This document shows positions 15,378 through 62,924 of a stretch of 64,000 bases of DNA, piece after piece. A program made the position numbers and the translations under genes. This DNA comes from Bryobacterales bacterium (GTDB lineage: Bacteria > Acidobacteriota > Terriglobia > Bryobacterales > UBA6623): NCBI GenBank assembly GCA_965219605.1, contig CBDCOC010000004.1, positions 121,619-185,618 of the forward strand, written 5' to 3'. A model generated the notes under the pieces. That model worked only from the letters and a program-made list of their open reading frames with translations, was not told the origin of the DNA and did not search any database. The stretch's first letter is position 1. Each line of letters begins with the position of its first letter.

Positions 15378-15453
<76 letters not shown>

Positions 15454-41059: not shown

Positions 41060-42178
41060 CTACCGGATCATTGCGATATCCCGGTCTCTGCTCGGCGGTT
41101 TCTCCGGCCAGGGCGACTGCGAAGGCCGATCCCACTGGATCTTGAGCTGCGAACCCTCTCCCTCCAAGCCTGCCCCCGTCTCTGCTCGCGCCGGGACTCC
41201 ATGCGCCTCTCCATGCTGTTGCCGCACGGCGTCATCCCTGCCATGTTCCAGCACCCTTCCGCGCTCCATCAGGTAATCGCTGATATCTTGCGCGTCACGG
41301 CTGGCCCGGTAGATCTCCTTGGGGTGGTCCCTCAGCGTCTGCACCCAGTGATCCACGTAGGACGCTGTCCGCGAGCCGTCGTGCCCGATATCCAGCCGGT
41401 CCCCGGTGATCATCGAGCTGATCTCGGCCCGCAACTCCTCCCGCGAGTATGCCACCGATTTGACTCCCTGGCGCATGCCTTCCATCAACGACGGGCGATT
41501 CATGCGCTGCGGATGCCCCGTCCAATGCCCGAGCTCATGCAGCGCCGACTGGTAGTACCCGGCCGCACTGGTGAACTGCTCGCGGTGCGGCAGCACGATC
41601 ACATCCCGGGCGAGGTCGTAGCACACGCGCTCCTCGTTTTTGTGCTCGATGGCCGCTCCGCTGTTCTTGATCAGCCGCTCGACACCTTCGTTGCGCTCCC
41701 ACCGATGGAGCGGCCCCCGCAGCGGCTTGTCCGGCAAGCCGCTGGCCTGCTCGGCGTTGAACACGGTGTACACGTAGCAACGCGGCCGCTGTAGCTTCCG
41801 GACCTCGTATACGGGCTGCGACTTCTCGTTCAGCACGGGCTTGCCCCGCTCGTCGCGCACCATCCGCTTGGCCTCCAACTGCCAATAGAGGATCTGGGAT
41901 CCCTGCTCCCCGCGCTGCACCTGCCCGCCGGCCTCTTGGATTTGCCGGTAGGTGCCCCAGCGCTCGTCCTTGTAGCCGTGCACCTTCGCCAGGCTGGCAA
42001 GCCACGTGCTGTTCCCGCCTTGGTAGTATTTTTCGGTCTTCAGGTTGTACGGCGCCACCTTCTCGCCTGCCGTCCACGACTCCTGCCAGCACGAAGTCCC
42101 GGCCTTGACCTGGGCGATCAGGACATCGGCCACCCGCCGGTAGTAGTCCTGCCGGCCCTGCTCGTCAAGCGGCCTCAT
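41060..42178 (-). CDS. ardC: ArdC-like antirestriction protein (N-terminal ssDNA-binding domain plus HExxH metalloprotease domain)
   Basis: MRPLDEQGRQDYYRRVADVLIAQVKAGTSCWQESW...YQGGNSTWLA...YVYTVFNAEQ...SALHELGHWTGH.... Confidence 0.8.
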   Translation of the reverse strand: MRPLDEQGRQDYYRRVADVLIAQVKAGTSCWQESWTAGEKVAPYNLKTEKYYQGGNSTWLASLAKVHGYKDERWGTYRQIQEAGGQVQRGEQGSQILYWQLEAKRMVRDERGKPVLNEKSQPVYEVRKLQRPRCYVYTVFNAEQASGLPDKPLRGPLHRWERNEGVERLIKNSGAAIEHKNEERVCYDLARDVIVLPHREQFTSAAGYYQSALHELGHWTGHPQRMNRPSLMEGMRQGVKSVAYSREELRAEISSMITGDRLDIGHDGSRTASYVDHWVQTLRDHPKEIYRASRDAQDISDYLMERGRVLEHGRDDAVRQQHGEAHGVPARAETGAGLEGEGSQLKIQWDRPSQSPWPEKPPSRDRDIAMIR

Positions 42179-42395
42179 CGCCGCTCCCCTCGTCGCCGAA
42201 CGCGAACGGATCCTCGGCGGCTTCAAACGCTTCCAGCCAGTCGGTGCAGTCGTCCGCGCATGCGCCGCAGGCAGCGGCCGTCTCCGGATCCATCTCGACC
42301 ATCACTCCGGGCTCGAGCAGCAGGCCGACCTCTGCCTCGGTCGCGGCGCGGTGCAGAAGCACTGCCTTGCCGCCAATGCGCTCGACTCTCTTCAT
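42165..42395 (-). CDS. Small acidic hypothetical protein, translationally coupled between virB11 and ardC
   Basis: ATG at 42395 overlaps the virB11 stop as ATGA. 76 aa with an acidic tail ...AAEDPFAFGDEGSGDEAA. The gene overlaps the ardC start. Confidence 0.45.
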   Translation of the reverse strand: MKRVERIGGKAVLLHRAATEAEVGLLLEPGVMVEMDPETAAACGACADDCTDWLEAFEAAEDPFAFGDEGSGDEAA

Positions 42396-43402
42396 TGCGG
42401 ATCTCTCCCGTCGTCCTCCGCGCTGGCCGCTGCGCCGTCGATGGCCAGCGGCCGGCACTCCCACTGGTGCGTCGACCAGGCAAAGCGCTCCACCCGCAGC
42501 GCCTCGACGACCTTGCGCCTGCCGGCGCGCCGCTCCAAGTGCAGCACCAGGTCGATTACGTCGCCCACCAAGTCCTGCACGGCCTCCCATGGCAGCCCGA
42601 TGCCCGCCTGCAGGACACAGGACGTGCAGCGCTTCAGGGCGTTGGCCGCCGAACTCGCGTGCAGGGTCGACAGGGAGCCGTCGTGCCCGGTATTGAGGGC
42701 CTGCAACAAGTCCCAGGCCTCGCCGCCGCGCACCTCGCCGAGGATGATCCGGTCCGGGCGGTGCCGCAGTGCCGCCCGGACCAAGTCGCGCACAGTGACC
42801 GCCGGTACGCTGTCCGTCGCCCGCCGAGCCTCGAAGCGGATTAGGTTCGGACGCTCGAGTTGCAACTCGACCGTGTCCTCGATAGTCACCACGCGCTCGT
42901 CCATAGGGATCAGCTGCGAAATCGCGGCCAGCAGCGTCGTTTTCCCGGTGCCGGTCCCGCCGCTCACGAGGATGTTGCGCCGCCGGTCCACGGCAAGGCG
43001 CACTGCGCGGGCAACGGCGGCGGGCACGCTGCCCGCGCTGGCGAGGTCGTCCAGTGTCCGCCGCTGCCGAGCGAACTTGCGGATCGTCAGCATCGGCCCG
43101 CCAAAGCTGCAGGGTGGAAGTGCTGCAGCGACGCGCGAGCCATCCGGCAGCCGGGTGTCCAGCAGCGGGCGTTCCGGGCTGATATCGTCGCCTTGGCTGC
43201 GAGCGATGGCCAAGGCTGCCTGCCGCACCTGCTTCGGATCCGGCACGATCCCTGCTACGGCTTCCAGCCGGCCGTCACGCTCGACAAAGACCGCGTCTGG
43301 ATTGACCATCACTTCGCTGACCGAGTCGTCCTCCAGCAGCCCCATCACGGGCCGCAGGAAAGGTGCAATCAGTCGAAAGCTCCGCTCCTCGCTGAGACTC
43401 AC
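42392..43402 (-). CDS. virB11: VirB11/TrbB-family type IV secretion ATPase
   Basis: Walker A SGGTGTGKTT. ...TIEDTVELQL...ILGEVRGGEAWDLLQALNTGHDGSLSTLHASSA.... GTG at 43402 is proposed as the start; the ORF extends to 43540. Confidence 0.85.
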   Translation of the reverse strand: MSLSEERSFRLIAPFLRPVMGLLEDDSVSEVMVNPDAVFVERDGRLEAVAGIVPDPKQVRQAALAIARSQGDDISPERPLLDTRLPDGSRVAAALPPCSFGGPMLTIRKFARQRRTLDDLASAGSVPAAVARAVRLAVDRRRNILVSGGTGTGKTTLLAAISQLIPMDERVVTIEDTVELQLERPNLIRFEARRATDSVPAVTVRDLVRAALRHRPDRIILGEVRGGEAWDLLQALNTGHDGSLSTLHASSAANALKRCTSCVLQAGIGLPWEAVQDLVGDVIDLVLHLERRAGRRKVVEALRVERFAWSTHQWECRPLAIDGAAASAEDDGRDPQ

Positions 43403-43555
43403 CGCGACCCTCCTTCTGGCCTCAATTCCCCGTGCGCGCGCAGCCCCCGCATGTGCCTGAGCGCAATCGCGGAAACACTTGCCGGGGGTGAGCGCACTGG
43501 CGGTGCCAGTTGCGATTGCGCTCTCTTCCGAGCGGCGCACATGCGCGCATATCAG

Positions 43556-43589
43556 GACAAATTATATATGTATAGATATAATTTGTCAA
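43556..43589 (-). promoter_or_regulatory. Consensus sigma70-type promoter (TTGACA-N17-TATAAT on the minus strand) embedded in a 12-bp perfect inverted repeat; candidate operator of the virB11 operon
   Basis: Minus strand reads cTTGACAaattatatctatacataTATAATttgtc. Inverted-repeat arms are GACAAATTATAT (43556-43567) and ATATAATTTGTC (43576-43587). Confidence 0.6.
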
Positions 43590-43830
43590 GGAAAGTTGCG
43601 ATATCCAGAGAAAATAGAGGCATATACTCCATGCCATGCCTTGGTGGATCGCACGGATGCATCCGCATGTGATCACTCATATCCCTGCGCGAGAGCGAAA
43701 GCATGGTTTCTGACTGCCCCGCCGGCGAGCGCTTCCCCCGTTACATGCGCAGCGCCTCGGGCCTGGAAGCGAGCGGCCTGCATCCATCCAGTGCTACGCT
43801 GTACACGGCCATAGCGCCTCCGGTACTGCC

Positions 43831-44682
43831 ATGCCCAGCACCAAAGCATTTGTCGCAGCCCAGCCCGCAGCGCCCGTCGATTACGCTGCCAGGGACGGCC
43901 GGATCATGGCCGAACTGCCCCGCCACGTGGACGCGATCCTGTATGCGCTGGCCACCTTGCGGACTTGGTTCGCCAGCTATGAGCGGGTGCAAGTGGGGGC
44001 GAACATGTTCCTGTACTACCAAGAGGGCGACAACAGCAAGCGGGTCACGCCGGATCTGTTCGTGGCGCGCGGCCTGGCAGCGCTGCCGGAGCGCTCGTAC
44101 AAGCTGTGGGAGGCCGGGCGGCCGCCCGGTTTCGTGCTGGAAGTTGCCTCGCCTAGCACCGAGGATCGCGATTGCGGGGAGAAGCAAGCCTTGTACGCCG
44201 CGATCGGGGTGACGGAGTATTGGCGCTTCCACCCGACGGGCGAGTTGAAGGCTGCCCGGTCGCCGGGGCTGCGCTTGGAGGGCGGAACATTGCAGGGGCT
44301 GGGGTACGCCCCTCTGGCGCTGAGGCGCGACGGATCGATCGACAGCGCAGTCTTGGATTTGAACGTCCGGGTGGACGAGCGCGAGGGGCGTTCGCATCTG
44401 CTGCGCTTCCGGGATCCCAAGACGTGGAATGACCTGCTGACGTTCGAGGAATCGGAGCAAGGCAGGCAGGCAGCGGAACAAGACAGGCAGGCGGCGGAGC
44501 AGGGCAGGCAGCAAGCGCTGCGCCGCTGGCAAGCGGCCGAACGCAGGCACCAGGCGGCCGAACGCAGGCACCGGGCAGCGGAACGCAGGCACCAGGCAGC
44601 CGAACAGGAAATCGCCCGCCTGAAGGCGCAGATTGCCAGACTCGAAAGCCAAGGGCCGGACAAGCACGGAAGCGAGTCCTGA
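43831..44682 (+). CDS. Uma2-family (DUF820) PD-(D/E)xK endonuclease, copy A, with a coiled-coil tail
   Basis: ...VTPDLFVARGL...PPGFVLEVASPSTEDRDCGEKQALYAAIGVTEYWRFHP.... The C-terminal tail has AERRH(Q/R)A repeated three times. Confidence 0.8.
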   Translation: MPSTKAFVAAQPAAPVDYAARDGRIMAELPRHVDAILYALATLRTWFASYERVQVGANMFLYYQEGDNSKRVTPDLFVARGLAALPERSYKLWEAGRPPGFVLEVASPSTEDRDCGEKQALYAAIGVTEYWRFHPTGELKAARSPGLRLEGGTLQGLGYAPLALRRDGSIDSAVLDLNVRVDEREGRSHLLRFRDPKTWNDLLTFEESEQGRQAAEQDRQAAEQGRQQALRRWQAAERRHQAAERRHRAAERRHQAAEQEIARLKAQIARLESQGPDKHGSES

Positions 44683-44751
44683 GCCGGCTGGGCGGTGGAT
44701 GCCGACGGCTGCGATGCAAAACGCTCGGCGCTTCCGCGTTCTCCCGTCGCT

Positions 44752-44905
44752 CTACGGCTTGCCCTCTGCCAAGGCTTGGTAATCGAAGCCAGCTTGTACG
44801 CTGCCTCGTCAGACAGGCAAAGTGCTCCACCCGGATCGCCTCGACAACCTTGCGGCTGCCGGTGCGCCCCTCCATTTGCAACACCAGATCGACTATGTCC
44901 CCCAC
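44752..44905 (-). pseudogene. Chimeric scar: virD4 3' end, internal virD4 fragment and virB11 C-terminal fragment
   Basis: ctacggcttgccctctgccaaggcttgg matches the virD4 3' end at 51146. ...SDEAAYKLAS... matches virD4 SDEASCQLAS. VGDIVDLVLQMEGRTGSRKVVEAIRVEH matches virB11 VGDVIDLVLHLERRAGRRKVVEALRVER. Confidence 0.7.
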
Positions 44906-44996
44906 CGTAACTACTCACGCCCGGGCTGGAGGATTTGAGTTTTGGGCTGCGGCAGGCGGGGCCCGGCGGTCGTGGGGAGTGGGGCCGGCGGCGCAG

Positions 44997-45044
44997 CCTA
45001 GTCTGAACTTCATCTGGAAAGGACGAACTAATTGCTTGTTTCAG
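44997..45044 (+). mobile_element. Solo terminal fragment of the IS1634-like element
   Basis: cctagtctgaacttcatctggaaaggacgaactaattgcttgtttcag matches 24649-24696 with about 4 mismatches. Confidence 0.7.
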
Positions 45045-45356
45045 GTTCAGGATAACTCGCCGAAGGCCTTCGTCTTCCCTTGTTTCGTCCGTCCACCCGG
45101 AGGGGCGTCCGTCCATGCCGAGCAAGATCCGCTGCGCCTTCTCATTGAACGCGGAAGGACAGTGCGGATCGCACGGGTCCGGCAGCAGAAGAGCCATCAG
45201 CACGGTGCGCGACGACGCGAGCGTACGACGCGCCCACCAGAGGTGGAGAGTGGCCGGATGACCATGCCGGATCGACTTCTCCCGAACCGCGTGGCGCGAA
45301 ACCTCGGCAATCGGGAAATCGACTTCGGCCAGCCGCTTGCACTCGCGCGGGATCAC
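45045..45356 (-). pseudogene. DUF1156 DNA methyltransferase, N-terminal about 104 codons only (truncated by the IS end)
   Basis: (V)IPRECKRLAEVDFPIAEVSRHAVREKSIRHGHPATLHLWWARRTLASSR..., the DUF1156 signature. The GTG start overlaps the upstream stop as GTGA. Confidence 0.7.
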
Positions 45357-46262
45357 GAGGATATTCCTCCTCCGGGCGCGGAGGGTTCGCCACCCGGAGC
45401 GCTGGATTCGGTCCGCTCTAGGAGTATCTTCCGCGTCCGCTCGATCTCCGAAGCGAGGAGTTCCTCGTCTGGAAGCGTGGTTCGGTACTCGGCCGCCACG
45501 ACCTTGTTCGGCAGGCCCTCCAGCGCGTACCGCGCGACGGTCTCATCCTTCTGGGCGCAAAGGATCAACCCGACCGGCGGGTTTTCGTCCCGACGAACCC
45601 AGTGCTCGCGGGCGTAGTTGAGGTAGAGGTGCATCTGCCCGGCGTCCGCGTGCGTGAACTTGCCGATCTTCAGGTCGATGACCACGAGGCATCGAAGACG
45701 GCGGTGAAAGAAGAGAAGATCGACGCGGTACCACTCGTCGCCGACTCGCAGCCGCCTTTGCCGCGCGATGAAGCAGAAGTCTCCGCCCAGTTCCAGAAGG
45801 AAGGCTTCGAGGTGGCGGGTCCGGGTCTCCTCAAGATCGCTCTCGGAGTACTCGTCCTTCAGGTCGAGGAATTCGAGAACGAACGGATCCTTGATCTCCT
45901 CCTCTGGAATGACGGTGTCACCGGGATCCTCCCCTCCGTCGGCGAGCAGGGCGGCCTTGTTCCTCGATAGCGCGGTTCACTCGTAGAACTGGGTGTTGAT
46001 CTGGCGGTCCAGTTGGCGGACGGTCCATCCTCCGCGGAGCGCTTCGGTCTCGCAGAAGGCGCGGGCGCGTTCGTTCCGCACCGAGAGTAGCTGAACGTAG
46101 GCGGACCAAGGGAGCGGAAACCGCGACCGGATGGGCTCCAGCAAAGATTCTGCAGACGGTGTCTGCACAATCGGCCATGCGAGGTAGAATGCGCGCATGA
46201 GCCAGACGTTGCGGACCGAGAAGCCCCGGCCGTAGCGCACCAAGAGGTCGGCCGCGAGCCGC
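45353..46262 (-). pseudogene. DUF1016 (YhcG-like PD-(D/E)xK nuclease) gene, N-terminally truncated, with an in-frame TGA at 45977-45979
   Basis: ...WTVRQLDRQINTQFYE*TALSRNKAALLAD...DLLFFHRRLRCLVVIDLKIGKFTHADAGQMHLYLNYAREHW...GLILCAQKDETVARYAL.... Confidence 0.7.
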
Positions 46263-46265
46263 TCT

Positions 46266-46512
46266 CTTGGACTTGAACGTCCGGGTGGACGAGCGCGAGG
46301 GGCGTTCGCATCTGCTGCGCTTCCAGGATCCCAAGACGTGGAATGACCTGCTGACATTCGAGGAATCGGAACAAGGCAGACAGGCAGCGGAGCAGGGCAG
46401 GTAGCAAGCGCTGCGCCGCTGGCAAGCGGCCGAACAGGAAATCGCCCGCCTGAAGGCGCAGATCGCCAGACTTAAAAGCCAAGGGCCGGACAAGCACGGA
46501 AGCGAGTCCTGA
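46266..46512 (+). pseudogene. Uma2 gene 3' fragment (no AERRHQ repeats, in-frame TAG)
   Basis: LDLNVRVDEREGRSHLLRFQDPKTWNDLLTFEESEQGRQAAEQGR*QALRRWQAAEQEIARLKAQIARLKSQGPDKHGSES. Confidence 0.75.
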
Positions 46513-46581
46513 GCCGGCTGGGCGGTGGATGCCGACGGCTGCGATGCAAAACGCTCGGCGCTTCCGCCTTCTCCCGTCGCT

Positions 46582-46760
46582 CTACGGCTTGCCCTCTGCT
46601 AAGGCTTGGTAATCGAAGCCAGCTTATACGCGGCCTCGTCAGACAGGCAAAGTGCTCCACCCGGATCGCCTCGACAATCTTGCGGCTGCCGGTGCGCACC
46701 TCCACGTGCAACACCAGATCGACTATGTCCCCCACCAAACTTATTCTGATCCGGCAAATA
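46582..46760 (-). pseudogene. Chimeric virD4'/virB11' scar (second copy)
   Basis: Same organisation as 44752-44905. VGDIVDLVLHVEVRTGSRKIVEAIRVEHFACL.... Confidence 0.7.
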
Positions 46761-46843
46761 CGCAGCGCCTCGGGCCTGGAAGCGAGCGGCCTGCATCCAT
46801 CCAGTGTTACGCTGTACACGGCCATAGCGCCTCCGGTACTGCC

Positions 46844-47674
46844 ATGCCCGGCATCAAAGCATTTGTCGCAGCCCAGCCCGCAGCGCCCGTCGATTACGCT
46901 GCCAGGGACGGCCGGATCATGGCCGAACTGCCCCGCCACGTGGACGCGATCCTGTATGCGCTGGCCACCTTGCGGACTTGGTTCGCCAGCTATGAGCGGG
47001 TGCAAGTGGGGGCGAACATGTTCCTGTACTACCAAGAGGGCGACAACAGCAAGCGGGTCACGCCGGATCTGTTCGTGGCGCGCGGCCTGGCAGCGCTGCC
47101 GGAGCGCTCGTACAAGCTGTGGGAGGCCGGGCGGCCGCCCGGTTTCGTGCTGGAAGTTGCCTCGCCTAGCACCGAGGATCGCGATTGCGGGGAGAAGCAA
47201 GCCTTGTACGCCGCGATCGGGGTGACGGAGTATTGGCGCTTCCACCCGACGGGCGAGTTGAAGGCTGCCCGGTCGCCGGGGCTGCGCTTGGAGGGCGGAA
47301 CATTGCAGGGGCTGGGGTACGCCCCTCTGGCGCTGAGGCGCGACGGATCGATCGACAGCGCAGTCTTGGATTTGAACGTCCGGGTGGACGAGCGCGAGGG
47401 GCGTTCGCATCTGCTGCGCTTCCGGGATCCCAAGACGTGGAATGACCTGCTGACGTTTGAGGAATCGGAGCAAGGCAGGCAGGCAGCGGAACAAGACAGG
47501 CAGGCGGCGGAGCAGGGCAGGCAGCAAGCGCTGCGCCGCTGGCAAGCGGCCGAACGCAGGCACCGGGCAGCGGAACGCAGGCACCAGGCAGCCGAACAGG
47601 AAATCGCCCGCCTGAAGACGCAGATTGCCAGACTCGAAAGCCAAGGGCCGGACAAGCACGGAAGCGAGTCCTGA
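46844..47674 (+). CDS. Uma2-family endonuclease, copy B (two AERRH(Q/R)A repeats)
   Basis: MPGIKAFVAAQPAAPVDYAARDGRIMAEL.... Near-identical to copy A by eye. Confidence 0.8.
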   Translation: MPGIKAFVAAQPAAPVDYAARDGRIMAELPRHVDAILYALATLRTWFASYERVQVGANMFLYYQEGDNSKRVTPDLFVARGLAALPERSYKLWEAGRPPGFVLEVASPSTEDRDCGEKQALYAAIGVTEYWRFHPTGELKAARSPGLRLEGGTLQGLGYAPLALRRDGSIDSAVLDLNVRVDEREGRSHLLRFRDPKTWNDLLTFEESEQGRQAAEQDRQAAEQGRQQALRRWQAAERRHRAAERRHQAAEQEIARLKTQIARLESQGPDKHGSES

Positions 47675-47743
47675 GCCGGCTGGGCGGTGGATGCCGACGG
47701 CTGCGATGCAAAACGCTCGCTGCTTCCGCGTTCTCCCGTCGCT

Positions 47744-48150
47744 CTACGGCTTGCCCTCTGCCAAGGCTTGGTAGTGGCTCCGTTCGCCCGGTAGATAGCC
47801 GGGCTTGAGATAGCAGATAGGTCGGCGGCAGCGATCGCGGCTGCCACGATCATCTGCGCGTTGCGCAGCTCGGCGAACGCTGACGGCTGGAACACCGGCT
47901 CACGCCGCACGTCCCCTTGCCGCCGCCAGCCGCCCGCTGAGCAAGCCGATGCCCGCCTGCGAGGACTCCGAAATCGAGTACTGCTCTTTGAGGCGCTCGA
48001 CCTGCCCGCAGGTTTCCAAGGCCAGCTTGCACGAGGCCTCGCCAGACAGGCAAAGTGCTCCACCCGGATCGCCTCGACAATCTTGCGGCTGCCGGTGCGC
48101 CCCTCCACGTGCAACGCCAGATCGACTATGTCCCCCACCAACTTCTTCTG
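47744..48150 (-). pseudogene. Longer virD4' remnant (about the last 130 codons, with indels) fused to a virB11' fragment
   Basis: Aligns with 51146-51500, for example ...EASCKLALETCGQVERLKEQYSISESSQAGIGLLSGR... and ...REPVFQPSAFAELRNAQ.... It then continues with LVGDIVDLALHVEGRTGSRKIVEAIRVEH. Confidence 0.7.
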
Positions 48151-48239
48151 ATCCGGCAAATACCAGTGCCTTGAGCTTGGAAGCGAGCGGCTGCATCCAG
48201 TGCTATGCTGTACACGGCCATAGCGCCTCCGGTACTGCC

Positions 48240-49070
48240 ATGCCCAGCACCAAAGCATTTGTCGCAGCCCAGCCCGCAGCGCCTGTCGATTACGCCGCCA
48301 GAGACGGCCGGATCATGGCGGAACTGCCCCGCCACGTGGATGCGATCCTGTATGCGCTGGCTACACTGCGGACTTGGTTCGCCCGGTATGAGCGGGTGCA
48401 AGTGGGGGCGAACATGTTCCTGTACTACCAAGAGGGCGACAACAGCAAGCGGGTCACGCCGGATCTGTTCGTGGCGCGCGGCCTGGCAGCGCTGCCGGAG
48501 CGCTCGTACAAGCTGTGGGAGGCCGGGCGGCCGCCCGGTTTCGTGCTGGAAGTTGCCTCGCCTAGCACCGAGGATCGCGATTGCGGGGAGAAGCAAGCCT
48601 TGTACGCCGCGATCGGGGTGACGGAGTATTGGCGCTTCCACCCGACGGGCGAGTTGAAGGCTGCCCGGTCGCCGGGGCTGCGCTTGGAGGGCGGAACATT
48701 GCAGGGGCTGGGGTACGCCCCTCTGGCGCTGAGGCGCGACGGATCGATCGACAGCGCAGTCTTGGATTTGAACGTCCGGGTGGACGAGCGCGAGGGGCGT
48801 TCGCATCTGCTGCGCTTCCGGGATCCCAAGACATGGAATGACCTGCTGACGTTCGAGGAATCGGAGCAAGGCAGACAGGCAGCGGAGCAGGGCAGGCAGC
48901 AAGCGCTGCGCCGCTGGCAAGCGGCCGAACGCAGGCATCAGGCAGCCGAACGCAGGCACCAGGCAGCCGAACGCAGGCACCAGGCAGCCGAACAGGAAAT
49001 CGCCCGCCTGAAGGCGCAGATTACCAGACTCGAAAGCCAAGGGCCGGACAAGCACGGAAGCGAGTCCTGA
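48240..49070 (+). CDS. Uma2-family endonuclease, copy C (three AERRHQA repeats, one RQAAEQ unit fewer)
   Basis: MPSTKAFVAAQPAAPVDYAARDGRIMAEL.... Near-identical to copies A and B. Confidence 0.8.
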   Translation: MPSTKAFVAAQPAAPVDYAARDGRIMAELPRHVDAILYALATLRTWFARYERVQVGANMFLYYQEGDNSKRVTPDLFVARGLAALPERSYKLWEAGRPPGFVLEVASPSTEDRDCGEKQALYAAIGVTEYWRFHPTGELKAARSPGLRLEGGTLQGLGYAPLALRRDGSIDSAVLDLNVRVDEREGRSHLLRFRDPKTWNDLLTFEESEQGRQAAEQGRQQALRRWQAAERRHQAAERRHQAAERRHQAAEQEIARLKAQITRLESQGPDKHGSES

Positions 49071-49451: not shown

Positions 49452-50409
49452 ATGGCCTTCCAGCTCAGTCACCCTCACGATCTCATCTTCCGCGCCAATC
49501 TGGCTGATCCGCGCCGACTCCATCCTGCGTGCCCATCTCGCCCCCCGATTGCTGCCCCTGCTGGCCGCCCAGCCGCCGCAGCCGCTCGATGGCAGCTTCG
49601 TGGACGAAGGCTTGCGCGTCAGTTGCAGCGAAAAGCTGCTGCAAGTCCAGTTGCGCAGCGGCCAGCCCGCTTTCCTGTACGTCTTGCTCGAGCACAAGTC
49701 TTGGCCCGATCCGGGCACCGCCCTACAGGTGATGAAATACAAGCTCCGCATCTGGGAGCAATACGCCGGTGGTTCGGTACGCAAGCTATGCACCCTGCCG
49801 CCCATCGTGCCGCTGGTCTTCTACCACGGGCGTGCTCCGTGGAGCGCGCCGCTCTCCCTCTCCGCCATGCTGGGTACCCAGGACCCGCTTCTGCAATCTC
49901 TGGAATGCAACTGCGGGTATTTCCTGCGCAACCTGAACGACCTGCAGGACGAGGAGTTGGCGGCCGATCCAGCCGCCCGGGCCGGCTTGCTGCTGCTGCG
50001 CTATTCCCATCGCAGCGGTTCCGAGGCCATGGAGCGGAAACTGGTGCTACTGCCGCGGATCTTGGCTCCGCTGCCGGACGGTTCGCTTTACCAGCGGCAA
50101 GTGGTGGTGTATGTTATGAGTGTCTGGAACGTGCCGCGGGCGGCAGTGAGTGCGGCTGCGGAGGAGGCCCTGCCGGGCCGGGGAGAGGCGATGGTAGGAC
50201 AGGTTGTACAGGAACTGCTCGATCAAGGCGAAACCAAGGGCCGCGCCGATTCCTTGGCGTGGCTGCTGGAACATCGCTTCGGGCAACTGCCGTCTGCGAT
50301 ACGGCGCCGCATCGCAGACGCTCCGCAGGGTGAACTGAGGGCTTGGTTCACGGCCGCGCTGGATGCATCGTCCTTGGACACGGTGTTTAACGGGCACGGC
50401 TTGGATTGA
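49452..50409 (+). pseudogene. Rpn-family (YhgA-like, PDDEXK_Tnp_1) recombination-promoting nuclease gene with an apparent frameshift near 49510
   Basis: MAFQLSHPHDLIFRANLADPR lies in one frame. ADSILRAHLAPRLLPLLAAQPPQPLDGSFVDEGLR...LLEHKSWPD...PIVPLVFYHG... lies in the next frame. Confidence 0.65.
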
Positions 50410-50621
50410 CCCGTCACACTGCCCGCGCCCGCCTCTGCGCGCTTGGTCGCAACCACAGGCTGGCCGGACTTTGGTAGGGCGGCTTGGGTGAGGACTTGGT
50501 TCGCGGGCGGCAGCCGCCAGCAGGGGTGCCAAGCCCGCCTCCATGGCCGCATTCTTTGCTGGCAGTCTCGTCGGCAGTGAGCGCGGCTGCGGAGGAGGCC
50601 CTGCCGGGCCGGGGAGAGGCG

Positions 50622-50888
50622 ATGGTAGGACAGGTTGTACAGGAACTGCTCGATCAAGGCTATGCCAAGGCCTACGCCAAGGGCTATGCCGAAGGCTATG
50701 CCAAGGGGCTGGCCGAGGGCTATGCTGATTCCTTGACGTGGCTGCTGGAACATCGCTTCGGGCAACTGCCGGCGGCGATACGGTGCCGCATCGTAGACGC
50801 TCCGCAGAGTGAACTGAGGATTTGGTTCACGGTCGCGCTGGATGCATCGTCCTTGGAGACGGTGTTCAACGGCCACGACTTGGATTGA
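50622..50888 (+). CDS. Free-standing duplicate of the Rpn C-terminal domain with an expanded (GYAK)n linker (expression unproven)
   Basis: MVGQVVQELLDQGYAKAYAKGYAEGYAKGLAEGYADSLTWLLEHRFGQLPAAIRCRIVDAPQSELRIWFTVALDASSLETVFNGHDLD parallels the last about 80 aa of the upstream Rpn gene. Confidence 0.4.
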   Translation: MVGQVVQELLDQGYAKAYAKGYAEGYAKGLAEGYADSLTWLLEHRFGQLPAAIRCRIVDAPQSELRIWFTVALDASSLETVFNGHDLD

Positions 50889-51145
50889 CCCGCGGCATTG
50901 CTGCATGCAGGGCCGCTAGCGACATTGCCCGCGCCCGCCTCTGTGCGCTTGGTCGCAGCCTCAGGCTGGCCGGACTCTAGTAGGTTCACAGTCGGCAGCC
51001 GCCAGCAGGGGATCCAGGCCTGCTCCCGTGGCTGCATTGACCTGTTTCTCTAACTTGGGTAATGACCCTCTGCGGCAGTCTCGTCTCTTGTTGTCACAAG
51101 CAAAAACCCATCGCTGGCAAGAGAGACTGAGCAGTCACCCCCGCT

Positions 51146-53095
51146 CTACAGCTTGCCCTCGGCCAAGGCTTGGAAATAGCCCAGTTCGCGCGGCAGGTAG
51201 CCGGGTTTGAGGTAGCAGTAGGTCGGCGGCAGCGGATCGCGTCCGTCATAAGCTGCCACGATCGCCTGCGCGTTGCGCAGCTCGGCGAAGGCCGACGGCT
51301 GGAACACTGGCTCGCGCCGCAGCGCGTAGGACTTGGTCACGCCGAACGTGCCCTTGCCGCCGCCGGCCCGCCCGCTGAGCAAGCCGACGCCCGACTGCGA
51401 AGACTCCGCGATCGAGTACTGCTCCTTGAGGCGCTCGACCTGCCCGCACGCTTGCGAGGCCAGCTGGCACGAGGCCTCGTCGGACAGCGACAGGAAGATG
51501 CGCGTCCGAAAGGTTTGCAGCAGCGTGCGCCACGATTCGCCCGGCAGGGCCGAGCGCAGCGAGCTCAGCGACTGCGTGGCCACCAGCGCCACCAGGCGCG
51601 CCTGGCGCGACAGGCTGAAGAATTTCTCGTCCCCGCTGGGGTCGCTCTCGCCGACCGTGGCGAAGTGCTGGTACTCGTCGCAGATGAAGGCGATGTCGCG
51701 CCAGGGCCGCTGCGGCTCGCGCGCCATGCGCGGGATGCGCTCCAGCACGCAGCGCTGGAAGTCCTGCTTGAGCATCACGCCGATGGCCCGCCCCAGGGCC
51801 GGGTTGGCCCCGACCGGCAGGTTCAGGGCCAGCACCTTGCCCGCTTCGAGCGCGTCCGCCACCGGCGGCAGGGCCCAGCGCCGGCGGTGCGGGCGGCCCT
51901 CGCTGTAGACCTGCCGCGGCGGGCAGAACACGTCGGCGATTTCCGGCTGGTCGAACAGCGACAGGAACACGCTCACGCCCTCCGTGATCGAGCTGCGCAG
52001 GCGCGTGTCGAGCTGGCTCCAGTCGTGCCGGTACCAAGTGATCACGGTCTGCAAGCGCCGCTGCGCGCCGTCGGCCGGCTCGGGTTCCGCCTGTTCGAAC
52101 TCGATGCCGCGCTGCTGCAGTGCCTCGACCAGTTCCGGATCGGCCTGCACGAACCACCGGCCGGCGGCCTCGTCGTACTCCCACGGGCGCTCGGGCAGCG
52201 TCGGCACGTGCTGCCGGTACTGCTCGATCGACAGCCGCGCTTCGGGCAGCAGGCCGAGCTGCTGGCGCGCCTTGTCGATCTTGCGGCGCAGCGCCTCGTC
52301 GTCGAGCGCGGTGCGATACACGTCCTGCAGCGTGACGTAGCCGTCGCACGTGCGGAACAGCAGGATCACGAACTTGACCAGGTTGGTATAGGCCTGCTGC
52401 CAGAAGGGTTCCTTGCCCTTGCCGAACAGCTGGTTCAGCAGCGAGGCGATCTGGTAGGCCAGCGAGTAGGGGTCGAGTTCGCAGTGCAGCGGGTTGTAGC
52501 ACCAGTTCCCGTCCAGGCCCAGTTCGACGTAGTCGTCCTCCCGGCCCAGCTCGCGCAGCATGCGCCGCACCTGGTGGCAGAAGTCGCCCTTGACTTCCAG
52601 CACCAGCCCGCCGGGCCGCAACTCGGCCCGCTCGGCATGCCAGCCCAGCACCTGGCGCGCGAACGGATACATGCAGCAGGAGGTCTTGCCCGAGCCGACC
52701 GCCCCGAACACGGCCGTGCCGGCGTAGAGGCCGTGCCGCGGCACGGCCAGCCAGCCCGGCTGCGGGCTCGGCCCGGGCTGGGTGCGGCGGTGGGTTTCGC
52801 CGATGACGAGGCGCGGCCCGTCGCCCGCCGGCCACGGCGGCAGCGGGCCCGCGCCGGCCTGGCCCGCGCCCCGCTCCACGAGCAGCCCGCCGACGGTCGC
52901 GCCGAGGCGCGCTAGGAAGTACGACGTCAGGATCCAAGCCGCGGCGTAGCCCCAGCGCAGCAGCGCGGCGGCGCGGGGGGATTGCAGGGCGATCCAGGCC
53001 AGCGCGGGATCGTGCGCCGGCCAGGGCCACAGCCGGTAGCAGGCCAGCGCGCCGAGCAGGGCGCCCGCGCCGGCCAGCAGCGAAGTCAGCGTCAT
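51146..53095 (-). CDS. virD4: Type IV secretion coupling protein (VirD4/TraG/TraD family)
   Basis: N-terminal transmembrane helices, Walker A GAVGSGKTS and ...FICDEYQHFATVGE.... 649 aa. Confidence 0.85.
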   Translation of the reverse strand: MTLTSLLAGAGALLGALACYRLWPWPAHDPALAWIALQSPRAAALLRWGYAAAWILTSYFLARLGATVGGLLVERGAGQAGAGPLPPWPAGDGPRLVIGETHRRTQPGPSPQPGWLAVPRHGLYAGTAVFGAVGSGKTSCCMYPFARQVLGWHAERAELRPGGLVLEVKGDFCHQVRRMLRELGREDDYVELGLDGNWCYNPLHCELDPYSLAYQIASLLNQLFGKGKEPFWQQAYTNLVKFVILLFRTCDGYVTLQDVYRTALDDEALRRKIDKARQQLGLLPEARLSIEQYRQHVPTLPERPWEYDEAAGRWFVQADPELVEALQQRGIEFEQAEPEPADGAQRRLQTVITWYRHDWSQLDTRLRSSITEGVSVFLSLFDQPEIADVFCPPRQVYSEGRPHRRRWALPPVADALEAGKVLALNLPVGANPALGRAIGVMLKQDFQRCVLERIPRMAREPQRPWRDIAFICDEYQHFATVGESDPSGDEKFFSLSRQARLVALVATQSLSSLRSALPGESWRTLLQTFRTRIFLSLSDEASCQLASQACGQVERLKEQYSIAESSQSGVGLLSGRAGGGKGTFGVTKSYALRREPVFQPSAFAELRNAQAIVAAYDGRDPLPPTYCYLKPGYLPRELGYFQALAEGKL

Positions 53096-53110
53096 CGCCG
53101 CGGCCCGCCC

Positions 53111-54124
53111 CTAGCGGCTGGCAGCCTCGGCTGCCGCGTAGTCGAACTCCATCAGCACTTCCAGCAGGCTGCAAGACGCCGCGAAGTCTCCGCCCGGCTG
53201 GCGCTCCGGGGCGCCGCTGCGGGCCCAGGCCTGGTAGCGGCCCTCCGCCGCGGCGCTGCCGTGCTCGGCCGCCAAGCGTGCGTAGCGCTCGACGGATTCC
53301 CGCGAGAGTTCCTGCCAGCGGCGCTGGTCGACCCGCCGGCGCAGTTCGAAGTACTCGCCTTCCGACCAGTCTCTCCCGGCCCGTGCCAGCCAGCGGTTCC
53401 AGGCGTGGCGCAGCCGGGCGAACTGCGCCCGGCTGTCCGCCAGGACCACCCATTGGCAGGGCATGCCGCGCAGGTGCAAGGCCCGTGCCAATGGCTCGTG
53501 GCTTCGCAGGTGGCGTTCCATGCCGTGCGCGCTCGAGCCGGCATGCGCGTAGGTGAACCGCACGGCGGGGCAGCCCGCTCCCGGCACTCCGATCGGAAAC
53601 CCGTCCGGGAACGCCGCGCGCCGCCCCTGGCGCGCGCGCACGGCCGCCGGGAAGCGGTCCCGGCCGATCCCCAGCGCTGCGAAATAGTCCGCCTTGTCCT
53701 CGGCGGCGAGCAGCAGTCGCGCCGTCTCCCGGCAGGCGATCCAGTAATCCAGGGCCAGCAGGCGTTGCTTGGCGGCGCGCGGGGCCCGGCCGGGCGCCGA
53801 ACCCGGCACCTTGCAGCCGGCCGCGCGGAACAGCGGCGCTCCGCACAGGCGGTACAGCCTCGGCTTGCGCCCGTCGGCCTTGAGATGGCCGTTGGCCCGC
53901 GCCCGCCGGAGCAGCCCGGCCTCGCTCCCGCCCCCGCCGGACTTGCGGAACTCCCGGAACTGGCGGCGTGCGAAAAAGCCGCCCAGCAAGGCGGCCGCTG
54001 CCAGGAATTCAGCCTCGGCCGGGCGGTAGCCGAGCGCCGCCACTCGCCCCGCGCGCTCCGCGAGATCGATCCGGCCCGCATCCTGCGGGCTTGCCGGCGA
54101 GCCCGCCGTTACCGCGGCTTGCAC
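53111..54124 (-). CDS. Hypothetical conjugation-module protein, possibly replication-relaxation (Replic_Relax)-like
   Basis: 337-aa ORF packed tightly between neighbouring genes. ...LLALDYW...FPDGFPIG...VRFTYAHAGSS... weakly resembles the PD-(D/E)xK-like Replic_Relax pattern. Confidence 0.35.
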   Translation of the reverse strand: MQAAVTAGSPASPQDAGRIDLAERAGRVAALGYRPAEAEFLAAAALLGGFFARRQFREFRKSGGGGSEAGLLRRARANGHLKADGRKPRLYRLCGAPLFRAAGCKVPGSAPGRAPRAAKQRLLALDYWIACRETARLLLAAEDKADYFAALGIGRDRFPAAVRARQGRRAAFPDGFPIGVPGAGCPAVRFTYAHAGSSAHGMERHLRSHEPLARALHLRGMPCQWVVLADSRAQFARLRHAWNRWLARAGRDWSEGEYFELRRRVDQRRWQELSRESVERYARLAAEHGSAAAEGRYQAWARSGAPERQPGGDFAASCSLLEVLMEFDYAAAEAASR

Positions 54125-55011
54125 GGCTGTGCCTCCTGGCGTGCCACTTGGCCGTCCGCGGCCATCCGATAGACTTGGAAGCCCGCCGTCGCCTTCAGCG
54201 ACAGGCTGCTCGCGCGGTAGTCTGCGGTGACGACTTCGAGATCCGCCAGGCGCGTCTCGCCGGCGCCGTCAGGGCCGTGTGACCATTCGATGCGCAGGTC
54301 GGGGAAGCGCAGCCTCCCGCCGGCAACCGTGAGCCGCAGATCCGCCGCCGCGGCAGCGCGGGCGGCGGAGCCGTCCGCGCCCGTGCGCCGGGCCGCGTCC
54401 GTCTGCCGCGCGGCGATGCGCCGCAACTGGCGCTCCGTGCGAATGCGCCGCACGGCGCCCCCCGCCGCGGCGATGTGGCGCAGCTCGCATTGCGCGGCCC
54501 GGTAGACCGCCGTGTCGTGCAAGACCTGGGCGGCGTGGGCGCGGCCGGACAGGTAGGCTTGCGCCTCTTCGTCGCCCGTGGCGCGCGGATCGATGCCGCG
54601 CTCCAGCAAGCGCCGCCCGCGGCCGGTCAGCGTCACCGCCTCCAGCCGGCGCCCGGCGCGCTGGAAGCGCTCCGTGCGCAGCAGGCCGCCTTGCTCCAAC
54701 TCGGCGACGCAGCGCTTGGCGCGCCCGCCCGAATCGAACCGGGCGCACAGGTCGGACAGCTCGACAGTGCCGAAGATCCCGGTCGCGCGCAACGCTTCCA
54801 CGCTGTCCTCGGCCAGCCGGAAGCGGCCCCACTGCGCCAGCGCCCGCCGGCGCTGCCGGCGATCGTTGCCGCGCGGAGCGCCCAAGACCTCCCGGCGGAC
54901 TTCCCGGGCAGGCCCGGCCTGCGGCTCCCTGCCGGGCGGAAGCTCCGCACGCCCGCGCGGATCCAGGGGCGCGGGCCGCCCGCGGCCGCGCTCCTCGCTC
55001 CGGCCTCTCAT
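54109..55011 (-). CDS. Hypothetical conjugation-module protein with a winged-helix-like segment, possibly Replic_Relax-like
   Basis: ATG at 55011 overlaps the upstream stop as ATGA. ...CVAELEQGGLLRTERFQRAGRRLEAVTLTGRGRRLL...VLHDTAVYRAA...RFPDLRIEW...DLEVVTADYRASSLSLK.... Confidence 0.4.
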   Translation of the reverse strand: MRGRSEERGRGRPAPLDPRGRAELPPGREPQAGPAREVRREVLGAPRGNDRRQRRRALAQWGRFRLAEDSVEALRATGIFGTVELSDLCARFDSGGRAKRCVAELEQGGLLRTERFQRAGRRLEAVTLTGRGRRLLERGIDPRATGDEEAQAYLSGRAHAAQVLHDTAVYRAAQCELRHIAAAGGAVRRIRTERQLRRIAARQTDAARRTGADGSAARAAAAADLRLTVAGGRLRFPDLRIEWSHGPDGAGETRLADLEVVTADYRASSLSLKATAGFQVYRMAADGQVARQEAQPCKPR

Positions 55012-55316
55012 CCCTGTCCGGCCTCCTGCCGGCGCAAGCGGCGCGCCAGCTCGGCATCGAACGTCTTGCCCCGCCGCACCTCGCCGTCCAAGCGGCGCAG
55101 CTTGCGTCCCGCATCGCCCAGCCCCAAGCGGCGGCAGGCCAGGTACAGCAGGGCGAACAGGTCGAATGACAGAGCCAGGGCGTAGGCAGTCACCTGCCCG
55201 CCGCAGCTGCGCCACAGTGCCTCGCGGTACGGCGCCAGGTAGCGGAACTCGTCCAGCGCCAGCCAGGCCGCGACGCCGCCGATCGACAGCGTCAGCCCGA
55301 ATGCGATCCTTGCCAT
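55008..55316 (-). CDS. Small two-transmembrane-helix protein of the T4SS operon
   Basis: 102 aa. MARIAFGLTLSIGGVAAWLAL... and ...YALALSFDLFALLYLA.... Lies 3 nt after the virB8 stop. Confidence 0.5.
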   Translation of the reverse strand: MARIAFGLTLSIGGVAAWLALDEFRYLAPYREALWRSCGGQVTAYALALSFDLFALLYLACRRLGLGDAGRKLRRLDGEVRRGKTFDAELARRLRRQEAGQG

Positions 55317-55319
55317 GGC

Positions 55320-55970
55320 TCAGTCCTCGATCCGGTCGCTGCGGAAGTACGTGATCGACAGTCCGAGCGGGTTGACGGCCAGCAGTTCGCGCGGTGGCCG
55401 CTCCAGGAAGCGGAACTCGAACTCCGACGTCCAGCGCCGCGCCCGGCCGGCGCGCCCGCCGAACTCGCGCGCCGTTTCGGTGAAATCCACCCGCGCCCGG
55501 TAGGGCTCCTCGCGCGCCGGCTGCACCTGCACCGCGTCGATCGCGATCTCGATCTCCGCGCCCTCGCCGCCGAGGAAGCGCACGAGCTCGCCGCTGTCCT
55601 CCTGCTCCTGCATCAGGCGCCGGCCCAGCGCCCCGTCGAGGAACAGCAGCGAGCGCTGCCAGGCGTCCAAGCCGGCCGCGCGGCGCCGCTCGCGATGCAG
55701 CACGACGAACTGGCGCAGGAAGTATTTCACCTCCGGCTTGGCCACGTCGGGCACGTAGGCCGCCGCCTCGTAGCGCAGCGCCTCGGCCCGCCCGACCTCG
55801 TCGATGCGCACGACCAGCGGCGCGAGGTGCTCGAAGCGGTCGAAGGTGCGCCAGCAGAGCAGCAGCAGGCCCACGCACAGCAGCGCCGCGCCGCCCAGCG
55901 CGACTTTCAGGTAGCGGTTGGTGGACAGCACCTCCGCCCAGATTTCCGCGTATGCCTCGTGCGTTTTCAC
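55320..55970 (-). CDS. virB8: VirB8-family T4SS protein
   Basis: Single transmembrane helix followed by an NTF2-like domain ending ...AVNPLGLSITYFRSDRIED. GTG at 55970 is preceded by GAGGAAG. Confidence 0.7.
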   Translation of the reverse strand: MKTHEAYAEIWAEVLSTNRYLKVALGGAALLCVGLLLLCWRTFDRFEHLAPLVVRIDEVGRAEALRYEAAAYVPDVAKPEVKYFLRQFVVLHRERRRAAGLDAWQRSLLFLDGALGRRLMQEQEDSGELVRFLGGEGAEIEIAIDAVQVQPAREEPYRARVDFTETAREFGGRAGRARRWTSEFEFRFLERPPRELLAVNPLGLSITYFRSDRIED

Positions 55971-55980
55971 GACTTCCTCC

Positions 55981-56868
55981 TCACAGGCCGGCCCTGCGGG
56001 CGGCGGCCGAGACAACGGCCGCGGCGCCGCTGGTGAAGCTGCCGCTGCCGTGGAAGATGGCATGGGTCAGGGCATGCACCTTGAACATCGCCAGCACGGC
56101 CGCCAGCAGCACCGCCGCGGAATAAAAGAACCAGGCGACCTTGGCGCTCAGGCCGGCAGGCACGGCCTGCCACATGCCGTCCAGCATGAACGTGCAGAGC
56201 GCCAGGAACGTCCAGCCGACCGCGCTGTAGAACGAGAACTGCAGGTAGGAGCGCAGCCAGCCCCAGAACAGGAAATCCATCTTGGGCACGAACAGCCAGG
56301 GGATGAACAGCGGCCCCAGCACGACACAGGCCCCGGCCGCCACGCGCCCGGCGGCGATGGACGCGATCAGCAGCGCAGTACAGGCGGCGTTGAAGAGCAG
56401 GATGACGAAGGTCCACACCAGCGAACCCGCTCCCAGGAAGAAGTCGAAGAAGCTGCGCGAGGTCATCTCGGTCCAGCCCGCGTGGAAGGAGCGGGCGAAG
56501 TTCCAGCTGATGAAGCCGTCGATGCGCTGTGCGTAGAAGTCCGCGGCGCGCATGGGTAGCGTCGCGACCGGCATGCCGAGGCCGGGCGCGTCGGCGATGT
56601 AGAAGCGCAGCATGGCGAGGCTGAACGACATCGCCAGCAGCAGCGGCAGCAGGCGGCCCCAGGGCACGCCCTGGCCGGACAGGGCGGTCTGCACGCCGAA
56701 CCAGGCGATCGACAGGGCGGCCAGCGCGCGGAACAGCAGCAGGCCCTCGCCGACGAACAGCGGGGCGAGATCCACGATCGCCGCGTCGATCGCGGCAAAC
56801 GCCCACAGCAGCGGGAATTCGCCGGGATCAGTGGGCGGGACCGGTGTCGAAGCGGGCAATACCTGCAT
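55981..56868 (-). CDS. virB6: VirB6/TrbL-family polytopic T4SS membrane protein
   Basis: 295 aa with at least 6 hydrophobic helices and Trp-rich loops. Its position in the operon fits. Confidence 0.7.
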   Translation of the reverse strand: MQVLPASTPVPPTDPGEFPLLWAFAAIDAAIVDLAPLFVGEGLLLFRALAALSIAWFGVQTALSGQGVPWGRLLPLLLAMSFSLAMLRFYIADAPGLGMPVATLPMRAADFYAQRIDGFISWNFARSFHAGWTEMTSRSFFDFFLGAGSLVWTFVILLFNAACTALLIASIAAGRVAAGACVVLGPLFIPWLFVPKMDFLFWGWLRSYLQFSFYSAVGWTFLALCTFMLDGMWQAVPAGLSAKVAWFFYSAAVLLAAVLAMFKVHALTHAIFHGSGSFTSGAAAVVSAAARRAGL

Positions 56869-56883
56869 GGTGCGCTCCTGCGG

Positions 56884-58934: not shown

Positions 58935-58948
58935 GCCGCCGCCCTCCG

Positions 58949-59755: not shown

Positions 59756-59760
59756 GGTGT

Positions 59761-62788: not shown

Positions 62789-62924
62789 GAGGATGCCCTC
62801 CTGGAGATGGATTGGAAGTGCGGGTTGCGCAGCGGCCGGTACGGGGGGCTGACAGGCCAGGTTGTACGGTGAGTTTTGCCTCGCACCCTGGAGGCCGGAC
62901 GTTACGCAACCCATCTCAAGCAAT

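Follow-up and report, generated by a model that had tools for sequence, protein, structure and literature searches.

A tandemly amplified Uma2/DUF820 gene between virB11 and virD4 of a Bryobacterales type IV secretion cluster

The DNA studied here, a stretch of 64,000 nucleotides (nt) of contig CBDCOC010000004.1 from a Bryobacterales bacterium (the window; all coordinates without a locus label are window positions), carries three full copies and one fragment of a gene encoding a Uma2/DUF820 protein between the genes virB11/trbB and virD4/traG of a type IV secretion system (T4SS) cluster. The tandem amplification of this accessory gene is real and is explained by common processes, namely tandem duplication and gene conversion; the anatomy and history of the array are established with high confidence. 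The explanation we prefer as a whole joins this history to a Uma2 nuclease carried by the element, and we regard it as moderately probable. The function of that nuclease, taken alone, can be suggested from sequence with low confidence.

Anatomy and history of the array

Copy A (43831-44682, 283 amino acids), copy B (46844-47674, 276 amino acids) and copy C (48240-49070, 276 amino acids) all lie on the plus strand. A first inspection of the letters of the window, here called the sequence-only reading, had listed three full copies, and open reading frames (ORFs) are found at exactly the positions it gave. A 3′ fragment, the stump, occupies 46265-46512 on the plus strand; it extends from about codon 176 to the stop codon and lacks the AAERRH heptads. 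Against the hidden Markov model (HMM) of the Pfam family Uma2 (PF05685), A, B and C score 59-59.7 bits at a cut-off of 27, in agreement with the family to which they had been assigned. The copies had been described as near-identical by eye, and self-BLAST gives 97.2% identity over 1037 nt for A/B, 93.5% over 1097 nt for B/C and 93.6% over 1008 nt for A/C, with E = 0 and thus far past chance. Part of the stump (46265-46435) is 93-96% identical to the full copies. A subfamily HMM run over the window found no additional Uma2 copy. The PD-(D/E)xK core is kept, as had been stated: PDLFV, VLEVAS, EKQALY and EYW are identical in A, B and C, and the catalytic residues are intact.

Two types of the gene can be told apart. 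Type 1 (A and B) has the motif FASYERV and an extra QAAEQDR heptad, type 2 (C) has FARYERV (S49R), lacks that QAAEQDR heptad and has three AAERRHQ heptads. Copy B has one AAERRH heptad fewer than A, in which the 21-nt repeats lie at 44453-44511 and 44536-44605 (plus strand). AAERRH[QR] heptads number 2 to 4, and these 21-nt repeats of the tail expand and contract always in frame.

The repeat unit exceeds the gene, since it also holds dead 3′ pieces of virD4 and virB11. Segments of repeat family D7 (44788-44906, 46618-46738 and 48021-48139; 119-121 nt) resemble the 3′ end of the resident virB11 and encode, on the minus strand, VirB11 residues of about 322-360 (tblastn). Between B and C, 47740-48055 encodes VirD4 residues 535-648 (tblastn). 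The B-C scar is the full one (47675-48141, minus strand): the stop codon of Uma2 is followed by a 65-nt spacer, the dead virD4 3′ end (47740-48049), the dead virB11 3′ end (48021/48047-48141), a leader and the next Uma2 gene. The trailer after A (44683-44781) consists of a 69-nt spacer and the last ~30 nt of the dead virD4 (complement of the stop codon at 44752-44754); in the alignment it lacks 248 nt that the trailer of B has, and it is followed by the first virB11 3′ fragment (44788-44906, minus strand; tblastn 66%). The segment after the stump (46513-46738) is built in the same way, with a trailer (46513-46611) that has the same 248-nt deletion and a virB11 3′ piece (46618-46738, minus strand). 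In both cases the 248 nt of the virD4 piece were deleted between short CCAAGGC repeats. Altogether, the head-to-tail units show the junction of a virB11 fragment to a leader three times and the junction of a virB11 fragment to a virD4 fragment once.

Compared with the resident genes, the virD4 scar has 79.5% nt identity, with indels, and the virB11 scars have 76-84%. We considered that these fragments were brought in from another element and rejected this; they are closest to the resident genes and farther from every other locus, and are therefore old copies of the element's own genes, not imports.

The leaders lie on the plus strand at 43745-43830 (A; homology with the other units starts at 43745), 46758-46843 (B) and 48159-48239 (C). 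The sequence-only reading had each full copy flanked by the same leader and the same trailer. This holds for the leaders of A and B (84/86 nt, 98%) and for a 99-nt trailer in A, B and the fragment (98%); for copy C it does not, since its leader is only 85% identical to that of A, with indels, and its trailer is alignable at 68% and then unrelated. A role of leader and trailer as functional parts of a mobile unit was rejected because homology with orthologues elsewhere ends at the start and stop codons. Both were left behind by the duplication and do not serve as regulatory elements or partners, and to call the array the most system-like structure of the window was overstated.

These scars show the following history. 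A tandem duplication reached from about codon 535 of virD4 through Uma2 to about codon 360 of virB11, making the second Uma2 copy and leaving the junction of virB11 fragment and virD4 fragment as its scar. A later deletion took out codons 1-321 of virB11 and joined codon 322 to the leader. Since the virB11-leader junction is common to all three units, it was formed once and then amplified by unequal crossing-over. Deletions, among them the loss of 248 nt from two of the virD4 scars, and more unequal crossing-over then led to the present 3.3-copy array, which also captured the stump of an Hma/YhcG defence locus.

The array is seen in other assemblies as well. The protein encoded by copy B is identical to P0121, one of nine proteins in a 90% cluster whose named member is annotated as Bryobacterales (Acidobacteriota); the contig of the window has a length of 203,763 bp. 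An independent ENA contig from a sister strain (locus L001) is 98.7% identical through ArdC-VirB11-Uma2 and has the order ArdC-VirB11-Uma2-virD4 fragment-virB11 fragment-Uma2, with 96-99% identity, up to the end of the contig. Two proteins of the 90% cluster are also encoded on each of another two long contigs, which measure 1.12 Mb and 3.3 Mb. Types 1 and 2 stand side by side, one of each, in at least three other assemblies; therefore the two-copy state predates the divergence of the strains, and the window goes beyond it by one more type 1 copy and by the stump. Because of the arrangement in L001, the two-member contigs, and the single-nucleotide polymorphisms, indels and heptad numbers private to the copies, an assembly artefact is unlikely.

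The coding regions are far more alike than the DNA around them. Scars and flanks have diverged by about 15-32%, whereas the Uma2 coding regions are 98-99.5% identical; when A is compared with C, identity is 98.2% over the initial 621 coding nt, against the 85% of the leader and the 68% of the trailer. Eleven codons differ between A and C, nine of them in codons 15-49 and none in codons 50-197. The resulting difference-free run of 444 nt was reached in 0/200,000 simulations in which the differences were placed uniformly, and 10 synonymous changes were observed where 24-32 are expected at the divergence of the flanks (P ≤ 6e-4). Because of this identical run and the synonymous deficit, gene conversion of the coding region is the simplest explanation. 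Purifying selection is indicated as well: the 10 synonymous changes stand against a single non-synonymous one, which corresponds to a ratio of non-synonymous to synonymous rates (dN/dS) of ~0.03; among orthologues in other loci dN/dS is 0.14-0.42. That the copies are kept homogeneous while their surroundings decay, as had been proposed, is thus borne out by the conversion tract and the low dN/dS on the one side and by a YhcG pseudogene, an Hma stump and the virD4 and virB11 fragments on the other. Selection and conversion of a gene whose neighbours die show that it is doing something.

Origin of the insertion and its neighbourhood

The resident virB11/trbB ATPase gene is encoded on the minus strand at 42392-43402 (Pfam T2SSE, 9e-51); its ORF is open to 43540, and position 43402 is the likely start according to an alignment with five orthologues. 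It is followed by a gene for an ArdC-like antirestriction/zincin protein (41060-42226, minus strand; Pfam ArdcN 2e-26, MPTase-PolyVal 1e-35), with which the T4SS block ends in this direction. On the other side of the array lies the resident coupling protein gene virD4/traG (51146-53095, minus strand; Pfam TraG-D_C), and the rest of the T4SS is located upstream of it, including VirB10 (57741-59783; Pfam TrbI) and VirB4 (59761-62250; Pfam P-loop_TraG). With VirD4/TraG, VirB11/TrbB, VirB4/TrbE and VirB10/TrbI all present by Pfam, this is a conjugative-type T4SS cluster.

A scan of GTDB species representatives that started from Uma2 gave 79 loci, and the closest relatives are all in Bryobacterales/Terriglobia metagenome-assembled genomes (MAGs). 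Uma2 lies between virB11 and virD4, or a remnant of the latter, in L001-L006, L014, L015 and L026; in L002-L006, L014, L015 and L026 the order is ArdC(−), VirB11(−), Uma2(+) and then VirD4(−) or its 3′ remnant. In one Bryobacterales clade the position of Uma2 between virB11 and virD4 is thus conserved. The array had been described as convergent with the coupling-protein gene. This is true of the clade relatives, such as L002 with convergent stop codons 78 nt apart; it does not hold for the window, where 2 kb separate copy C from virD4. The orthologues in L026 (10001-10805) and L027 (10001-10605) are split over two frames and are apparent frameshift pseudogenes or sequencing errors.

A second scan, of metagenomes, started from VirB11 and gave 80 more distant loci (VirB11 43-57% identical), 73 of them with upstream DNA. 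In 54 of these 73, virD4 abuts or overlaps virB11, and a Uma2 gene was found in 0/80. At intermediate distance, L161 and L162 (VirB11 78% and 72%) are without Uma2, and L163 (VirB11 69%), also without it, has traG-trbB-x-ardC-trbC-trbD-trbE, i.e. the classical traG-trbB order. The order traG-trbBCDEJLFGI is known in Tn4371-type integrative and conjugative elements (ICEs; PMC2789088). At a VirB11 identity of at least ~80% and with upstream DNA, Uma2 is present in 7/7 loci, which is a small sample. These data agree with the view that the Uma2 genes separate two parts of a T4SS, as virD4 and virB11 are adjacent in relatives that lack Uma2. Judged from this comparison, the ancestral T4SS operon is one in which virD4/traG runs directly into virB11/trbB. 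Because the two genes are normally contiguous in relatives, Uma2 is a derived single insertion: it entered once, on the opposite strand, between virD4 and virB11 in one Bryobacterales lineage and has since been inherited with the T4SS genes. The groupings of loci by pairwise identity agree for Uma2, VirB11, VirD4 and ArdC, and in a neighbour-joining tree most T4SS-linked Uma2 genes form one clade. This points to co-inheritance of Uma2 with the T4SS rather than to repeated invasion.

Local duplications are recurrent at this site. Direct repeats of the virD4 3′ end, 101 nt long in L002 and 408 nt in L005, lie on both sides of Uma2 in these two loci, and in L015 such repeats flank an insert of 2.8 kb. 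The 101-nt repeats of L002 and L015 were suggestive of a cassette at a defined attachment site in the virD4 3′ end. However, the aligned breakpoints differ among L002, L003/L004, L005, L015 and the window; therefore there is no defined attachment site and this idea was rejected.

The interval between virB11 and virD4 holds more than Uma2. Between A and the stump lies, on the minus strand, the N-terminal stump (first ~140 codons) of a DUF1156/HmaB-type DNA methylase (44907-45356; Pfam DUF1156 8e-19, PADLOC HmaB 8e-19), followed by a pseudogene of a YhcG/DUF1016 PD-(D/E)xK nuclease (45353-46264, minus strand; Pfam YhcG_C 7e-23, DUF1016_N 3e-21, PADLOC PDC-S02) that is 5′-truncated and has an in-frame stop at 45977-45979. 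Judged by these matches, what was captured at 44907-46264 is left over from a defence locus of the Hma type; its YhcG part has a 634-nt match of 75% DNA identity on the megaplasmid of Cupriavidus necator N-1. Between the array and virD4 lies a YhgA/Rpn-like PD-(D/E)xK gene ("Transposase_31") at 49549-50409 (plus strand; Pfam 2.6e-29) with a partial duplicate at 50604-50885 (plus strand; tblastn; repeats D8-D10). Direct repeats are found near this gene at 50141-50984, and a tandem repeat of 12/24/36 nt at 50655-50725 encodes a peptide repeat of the KGYA type. Other cargo at the same site comprises a HicB-like ORF in L006 and inserts of 3-6 kb in L014 and L015. The interval between Uma2 and virD4 thus seems to collect other defence-type and addiction-type cargo as well. 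An Rfam scan gave tRNAs only, none of them in the array.

Some observations concern the wider surroundings. A distant Uma2 paralogue (37% identity) with head and coiled coil is encoded in another Bryobacterales genome (L164, 1772-2557), 3.4 kb upstream of trbB and on the same strand; this is a second, independent association of the head-plus-coiled-coil architecture with a T4SS. The gene order at 51146-62909 is circularly permuted relative to L163 (traG-trbB-x-ardC-trbC-trbD-trbE-trbI-like): the window has trbD/E, a trbI-like gene, four unknown ORFs, traG, the Uma2 array, trbB and ardC, after which chromosomal genes begin. Pfam gives no match for any of the four ORFs, which lie at 53111-58170. 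The T4SS core (52000-62000) has a GC content of 72-75%, compared with 62-67% elsewhere in the window, where virB11, ardC and Uma2 belong to the lower range; VirB10 has a GC content at third codon positions (GC3) of 0.74, unusually low for its GC content. At 15178-15665 and 15724-17167 (L001 2808-4223), a tRNA cluster (Thr-Gly-Thr-Gln) lies beside a segment that is ~3 kb away from ardC in L001 and 24 kb away in the window, where housekeeping genes (for prfA, panE, cytochromes and a sulfatase) and a DDE transposase (24713-26569) intervene; this difference in spacing points to a rearrangement at the strain level. In L005 (OZ241997.1), tandem repeats of ~168 nt that are 70-85% identical occupy 12600-17560, a few kb from the Uma2 locus, and probably encode a repeat protein.

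The protein, its expression and its possible function

In an alignment of 35 homologues, E28, D75 (of PDLFV), E104 (of LEV), D114 and K118 are invariant or at least 90% conserved; the EYWRF motif, kept in all copies, is also invariant or nearly so. The AlphaFold2 model (predicted local distance difference test, pLDDT, of 80.5) has an alpha/beta nuclease head, and the best PDB matches in Foldseek are the DUF820/Uma2 structures 9y1l, 6okh, 3ot2 and 1wdj with a probability of 0.99-1.0; there was no other notable match. From this, the head is predicted to be an active, Mg-dependent DNA nuclease. Residues 205-273 are modelled as one uninterrupted helix with pLDDT >90. It is made of heptads rich in E, R, Q and A without a regular hydrophobic pattern at the a/d positions, which suggests a single charged helix. 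Its end, EIARLKAQIARLES, has I/L at a/d positions over two heptads. The tail varies between 48 and 102 residues across the subfamily, and the terminal motif E[IV]ARL[RK]AQ[IV]ARLE is conserved. From these features of the tail, the protein probably works as a tethered dimer whose reach would be set by the length of the stalk. Dosage or pairing is the probable reason why both tail isoforms, type 1 as well as type 2, have been kept.

Upstream of copy A, a promoter scan found an AT-rich palindrome (43554-43589), which stands out in a genome of 65% GC. On the minus strand it reads TTGACA-17-TATAAT (43589 to 43561), directed toward virB11 and matching the sigma-70 consensus in 12/12 positions; on the plus strand AGGACA-17-TATAAT (43554-43582) is directed toward Uma2 A and matches in 10/12. 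A perfect 11-nt inverted repeat (43557-43567 / 43576-43586) contains the 12/12 promoter. The 12/12 site is kept in the Uma2-bearing loci L001, L003, L004, L014, L015 and L026, and a near-consensus version (11/12) with the same CTAT..ATAG palindrome is found upstream of trbB in L161-L163. That the virB11 promoter arrived with Uma2 was rejected since the site is present in these three Uma2-less loci; it is therefore part of virB11 regulation and predates Uma2. The palindrome looks like a putative operator-controlled promoter of the trbB-ardC part of the T4SS.

As for function, the element most likely carries Uma2 as a stand-alone weapon against other incoming DNA, be it phage or rival mobile elements. 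Such a conflict or defence nuclease is favoured because the catalytic site is intact under selection, because the gene persists beside a destroyed virD4, and because the site gathers defence-type and addiction-type cargo. In L003 and L004 Uma2 is intact though virD4 is reduced to 32 codons, which argues for a function independent of transfer. The nuclease domain also matches the PADLOC model PDC-S03 (E = 1.5e-11, 6.7e-11 and 1e-07). A more specific version, in which head, variable charged stalk and zipper form a weapon in conflicts between elements, recruited once at the virD4/virB11 junction and cutting Uma2-less rivals there or incoming DNA, with the two isoforms pairing to space the cuts, is speculative and unlikely; if true, the Uma2/DUF820 family, a very large one, would have its first function.

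Several points weigh against a defence nuclease on a mobile element. PDC-S03 is one of 145 "guilt-by-embedding" phage-defence candidates that are themselves untested (bioRxiv 10.1101/2024.01.29.577857), and no activity or function of any Uma2 protein was reported in the literature searched. No methylase, immunity gene or partner is conserved beside Uma2, which leaves the discrimination of self from non-self unexplained. The 64 neighbours of 17 paralogues outside T4SS clusters are ordinary metabolic genes without enrichment of defence or mobile-element genes, so the defence-island context that had been considered for the paralogues was not found there. IMG/VR holds no relatives of the subfamily, for which reason a phage origin was rejected, and among the PLSDB plasmids there is one weak cyanobacterial match only. 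P19 and S21 are nearly invariant in homologues, and the window copies have A and R instead. Copies B and C have gene debris upstream and no promoter-like site of their own in the promoter scan; they would be expressed by read-through. The Uma2 gene of L014 falls outside the main T4SS clade of the neighbour-joining tree. Finally, the scanned ORFs of the window include no relaxase and no integrase, and because of this we can only infer that the cluster belongs to a conjugative element.

Three other explanations have to be weighed. That Uma2 is a selfish, homing-type nuclease that cuts the empty virD4-virB11 junction of related elements and is copied in by repair, with the flanking pieces and the recurrent local duplications as repair scars, seems unlikely to us. 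Such a nuclease would be expected precisely where Uma2 is found, between two highly conserved and otherwise adjacent genes, and the virD4 direct repeats of L002 and L005, with their different breakpoints, could be read as its traces; PD-(D/E)xK homing endonucleases exist (I-Ssp6803I), and the family is a multi-copy one with solitary genes scattered among housekeeping genes. However, there is no presence/absence polymorphism within the clade (Uma2 in all seven loci of close VirB11 identity), Uma2 co-diverges with the T4SS genes, no flanks are conserved past the ORF, the breakpoints are not a defined site, and purifying selection has lasted long after fixation. A slightly lower probability is assigned to a dedicated T4SS accessory factor, which would process donor or recipient DNA, exclude entry at the level of DNA, or regulate by binding the palindromic virB11 operator. 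Its position and orientation in the T4SS cluster are fixed across the clade with a divergence like that of the core genes, it is divergent from the strong palindromic virB11 promoter, and the paralogue of L164 again lies near trbB. Yet the promoter/operator is older than Uma2, most relatives have the same T4SS family without it, close paralogues occur far from any T4SS, and the gene outlives virD4 in L003 and L004. Both readings fit the distribution data less well than a conflict or defence nuclease does.

The remaining explanation, that the array is neutral junk, i.e. functionless decaying duplicates, or a mis-assembly, is very improbable and largely refuted. Pseudogenes and fragments lie all around, some orthologues are frameshifted (L026, L027), and the short-read contigs L001 and another of 2.2 kb end within the array, all of which would fit. 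But all three ORFs are intact, the differences between A and C are 10:1 in favour of synonymous ones, at least three other assemblies keep both paralogue types, every change of tail length is in frame, and the private differences are not expected from a collapsed or expanded repeat.

Comparison with known systems

The array needs no new mechanism and is not a new kind of system. Its value is that of a lead into the Uma2 family rather than of a discovery, and the host belongs to an uncultured MAG lineage. Uma2/DUF820 is among the largest prokaryotic nuclease families without a known function, and a single genome can have dozens of copies, in cyanobacteria and Chloroflexota and, by the present data, also in Bryobacterales. 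The locus provides a rare fixed context for such a gene, which is inherited with a T4SS cluster, repeatedly amplified and kept intact.

With other Uma2/DUF820 proteins (1WDJ TT1808, 3OT2 Ava_3926, 6OKH, 9Y1L) the copies share the HMM match, the fold, the PD...E...K columns and the many scattered copies per genome. Unlike the solved proteins, which have 150-190 amino acids and no tail, they carry a C-terminal charged helix of 50-100 residues with variable heptads and a short zipper. A further difference from other members is that one clade has a stable place within a T4SS cluster; at the present locus the gene is also amplified in tandem and evolves in concert. The likeness to PDC-S03 (Payne et al.) consists in the match of the nuclease domain to the models and in the YhcG (PDC-S02) pseudogene and Hma stump within the array. 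PDCs are defined by embedding in intact Hma, BREX, DISARM or type I restriction-modification systems (bioRxiv 10.1101/2024.01.29.577857). In contrast, the embedding of Uma2 here is in a T4SS instead of a defence system, and the genes next to its paralogues are housekeeping ones.

SXT/R391 elements have hotspots for cargo. The variable regions of Tn4371-type ICEs (PMC2789088) resemble the present locus in that an intergenic site of a conserved transfer module gathers accessory and defence-like genes while the traG-trbB backbone is otherwise kept. In contrast to ICE hotspots, the site separates traG and trbB, Uma2 as the gene that occupied it first is conserved throughout the clade and not variable, and relaxase and integrase are missing among the scanned ORFs. 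Free-standing homing endonuclease genes are known from seg and mob of phage T4 and from the PD-(D/E)xK enzyme I-Ssp6803I. As with these, a small nuclease gene sits between conserved adjacent genes with duplicated pieces of its neighbours alongside; unlike them, it is not sporadic, has no defined target-site duplication, and has a phylogeny congruent with that of the host genes, albeit in a small sample. The bacterial genes tufA and tufB are paralogues under concerted evolution by gene conversion. The array is like them in that the coding sequences are near-identical while the flanks diverge and the differences are patchy and tract-like; it differs in that the converted gene encodes an accessory nuclease, whose repeat-rich tail escapes homogenisation.

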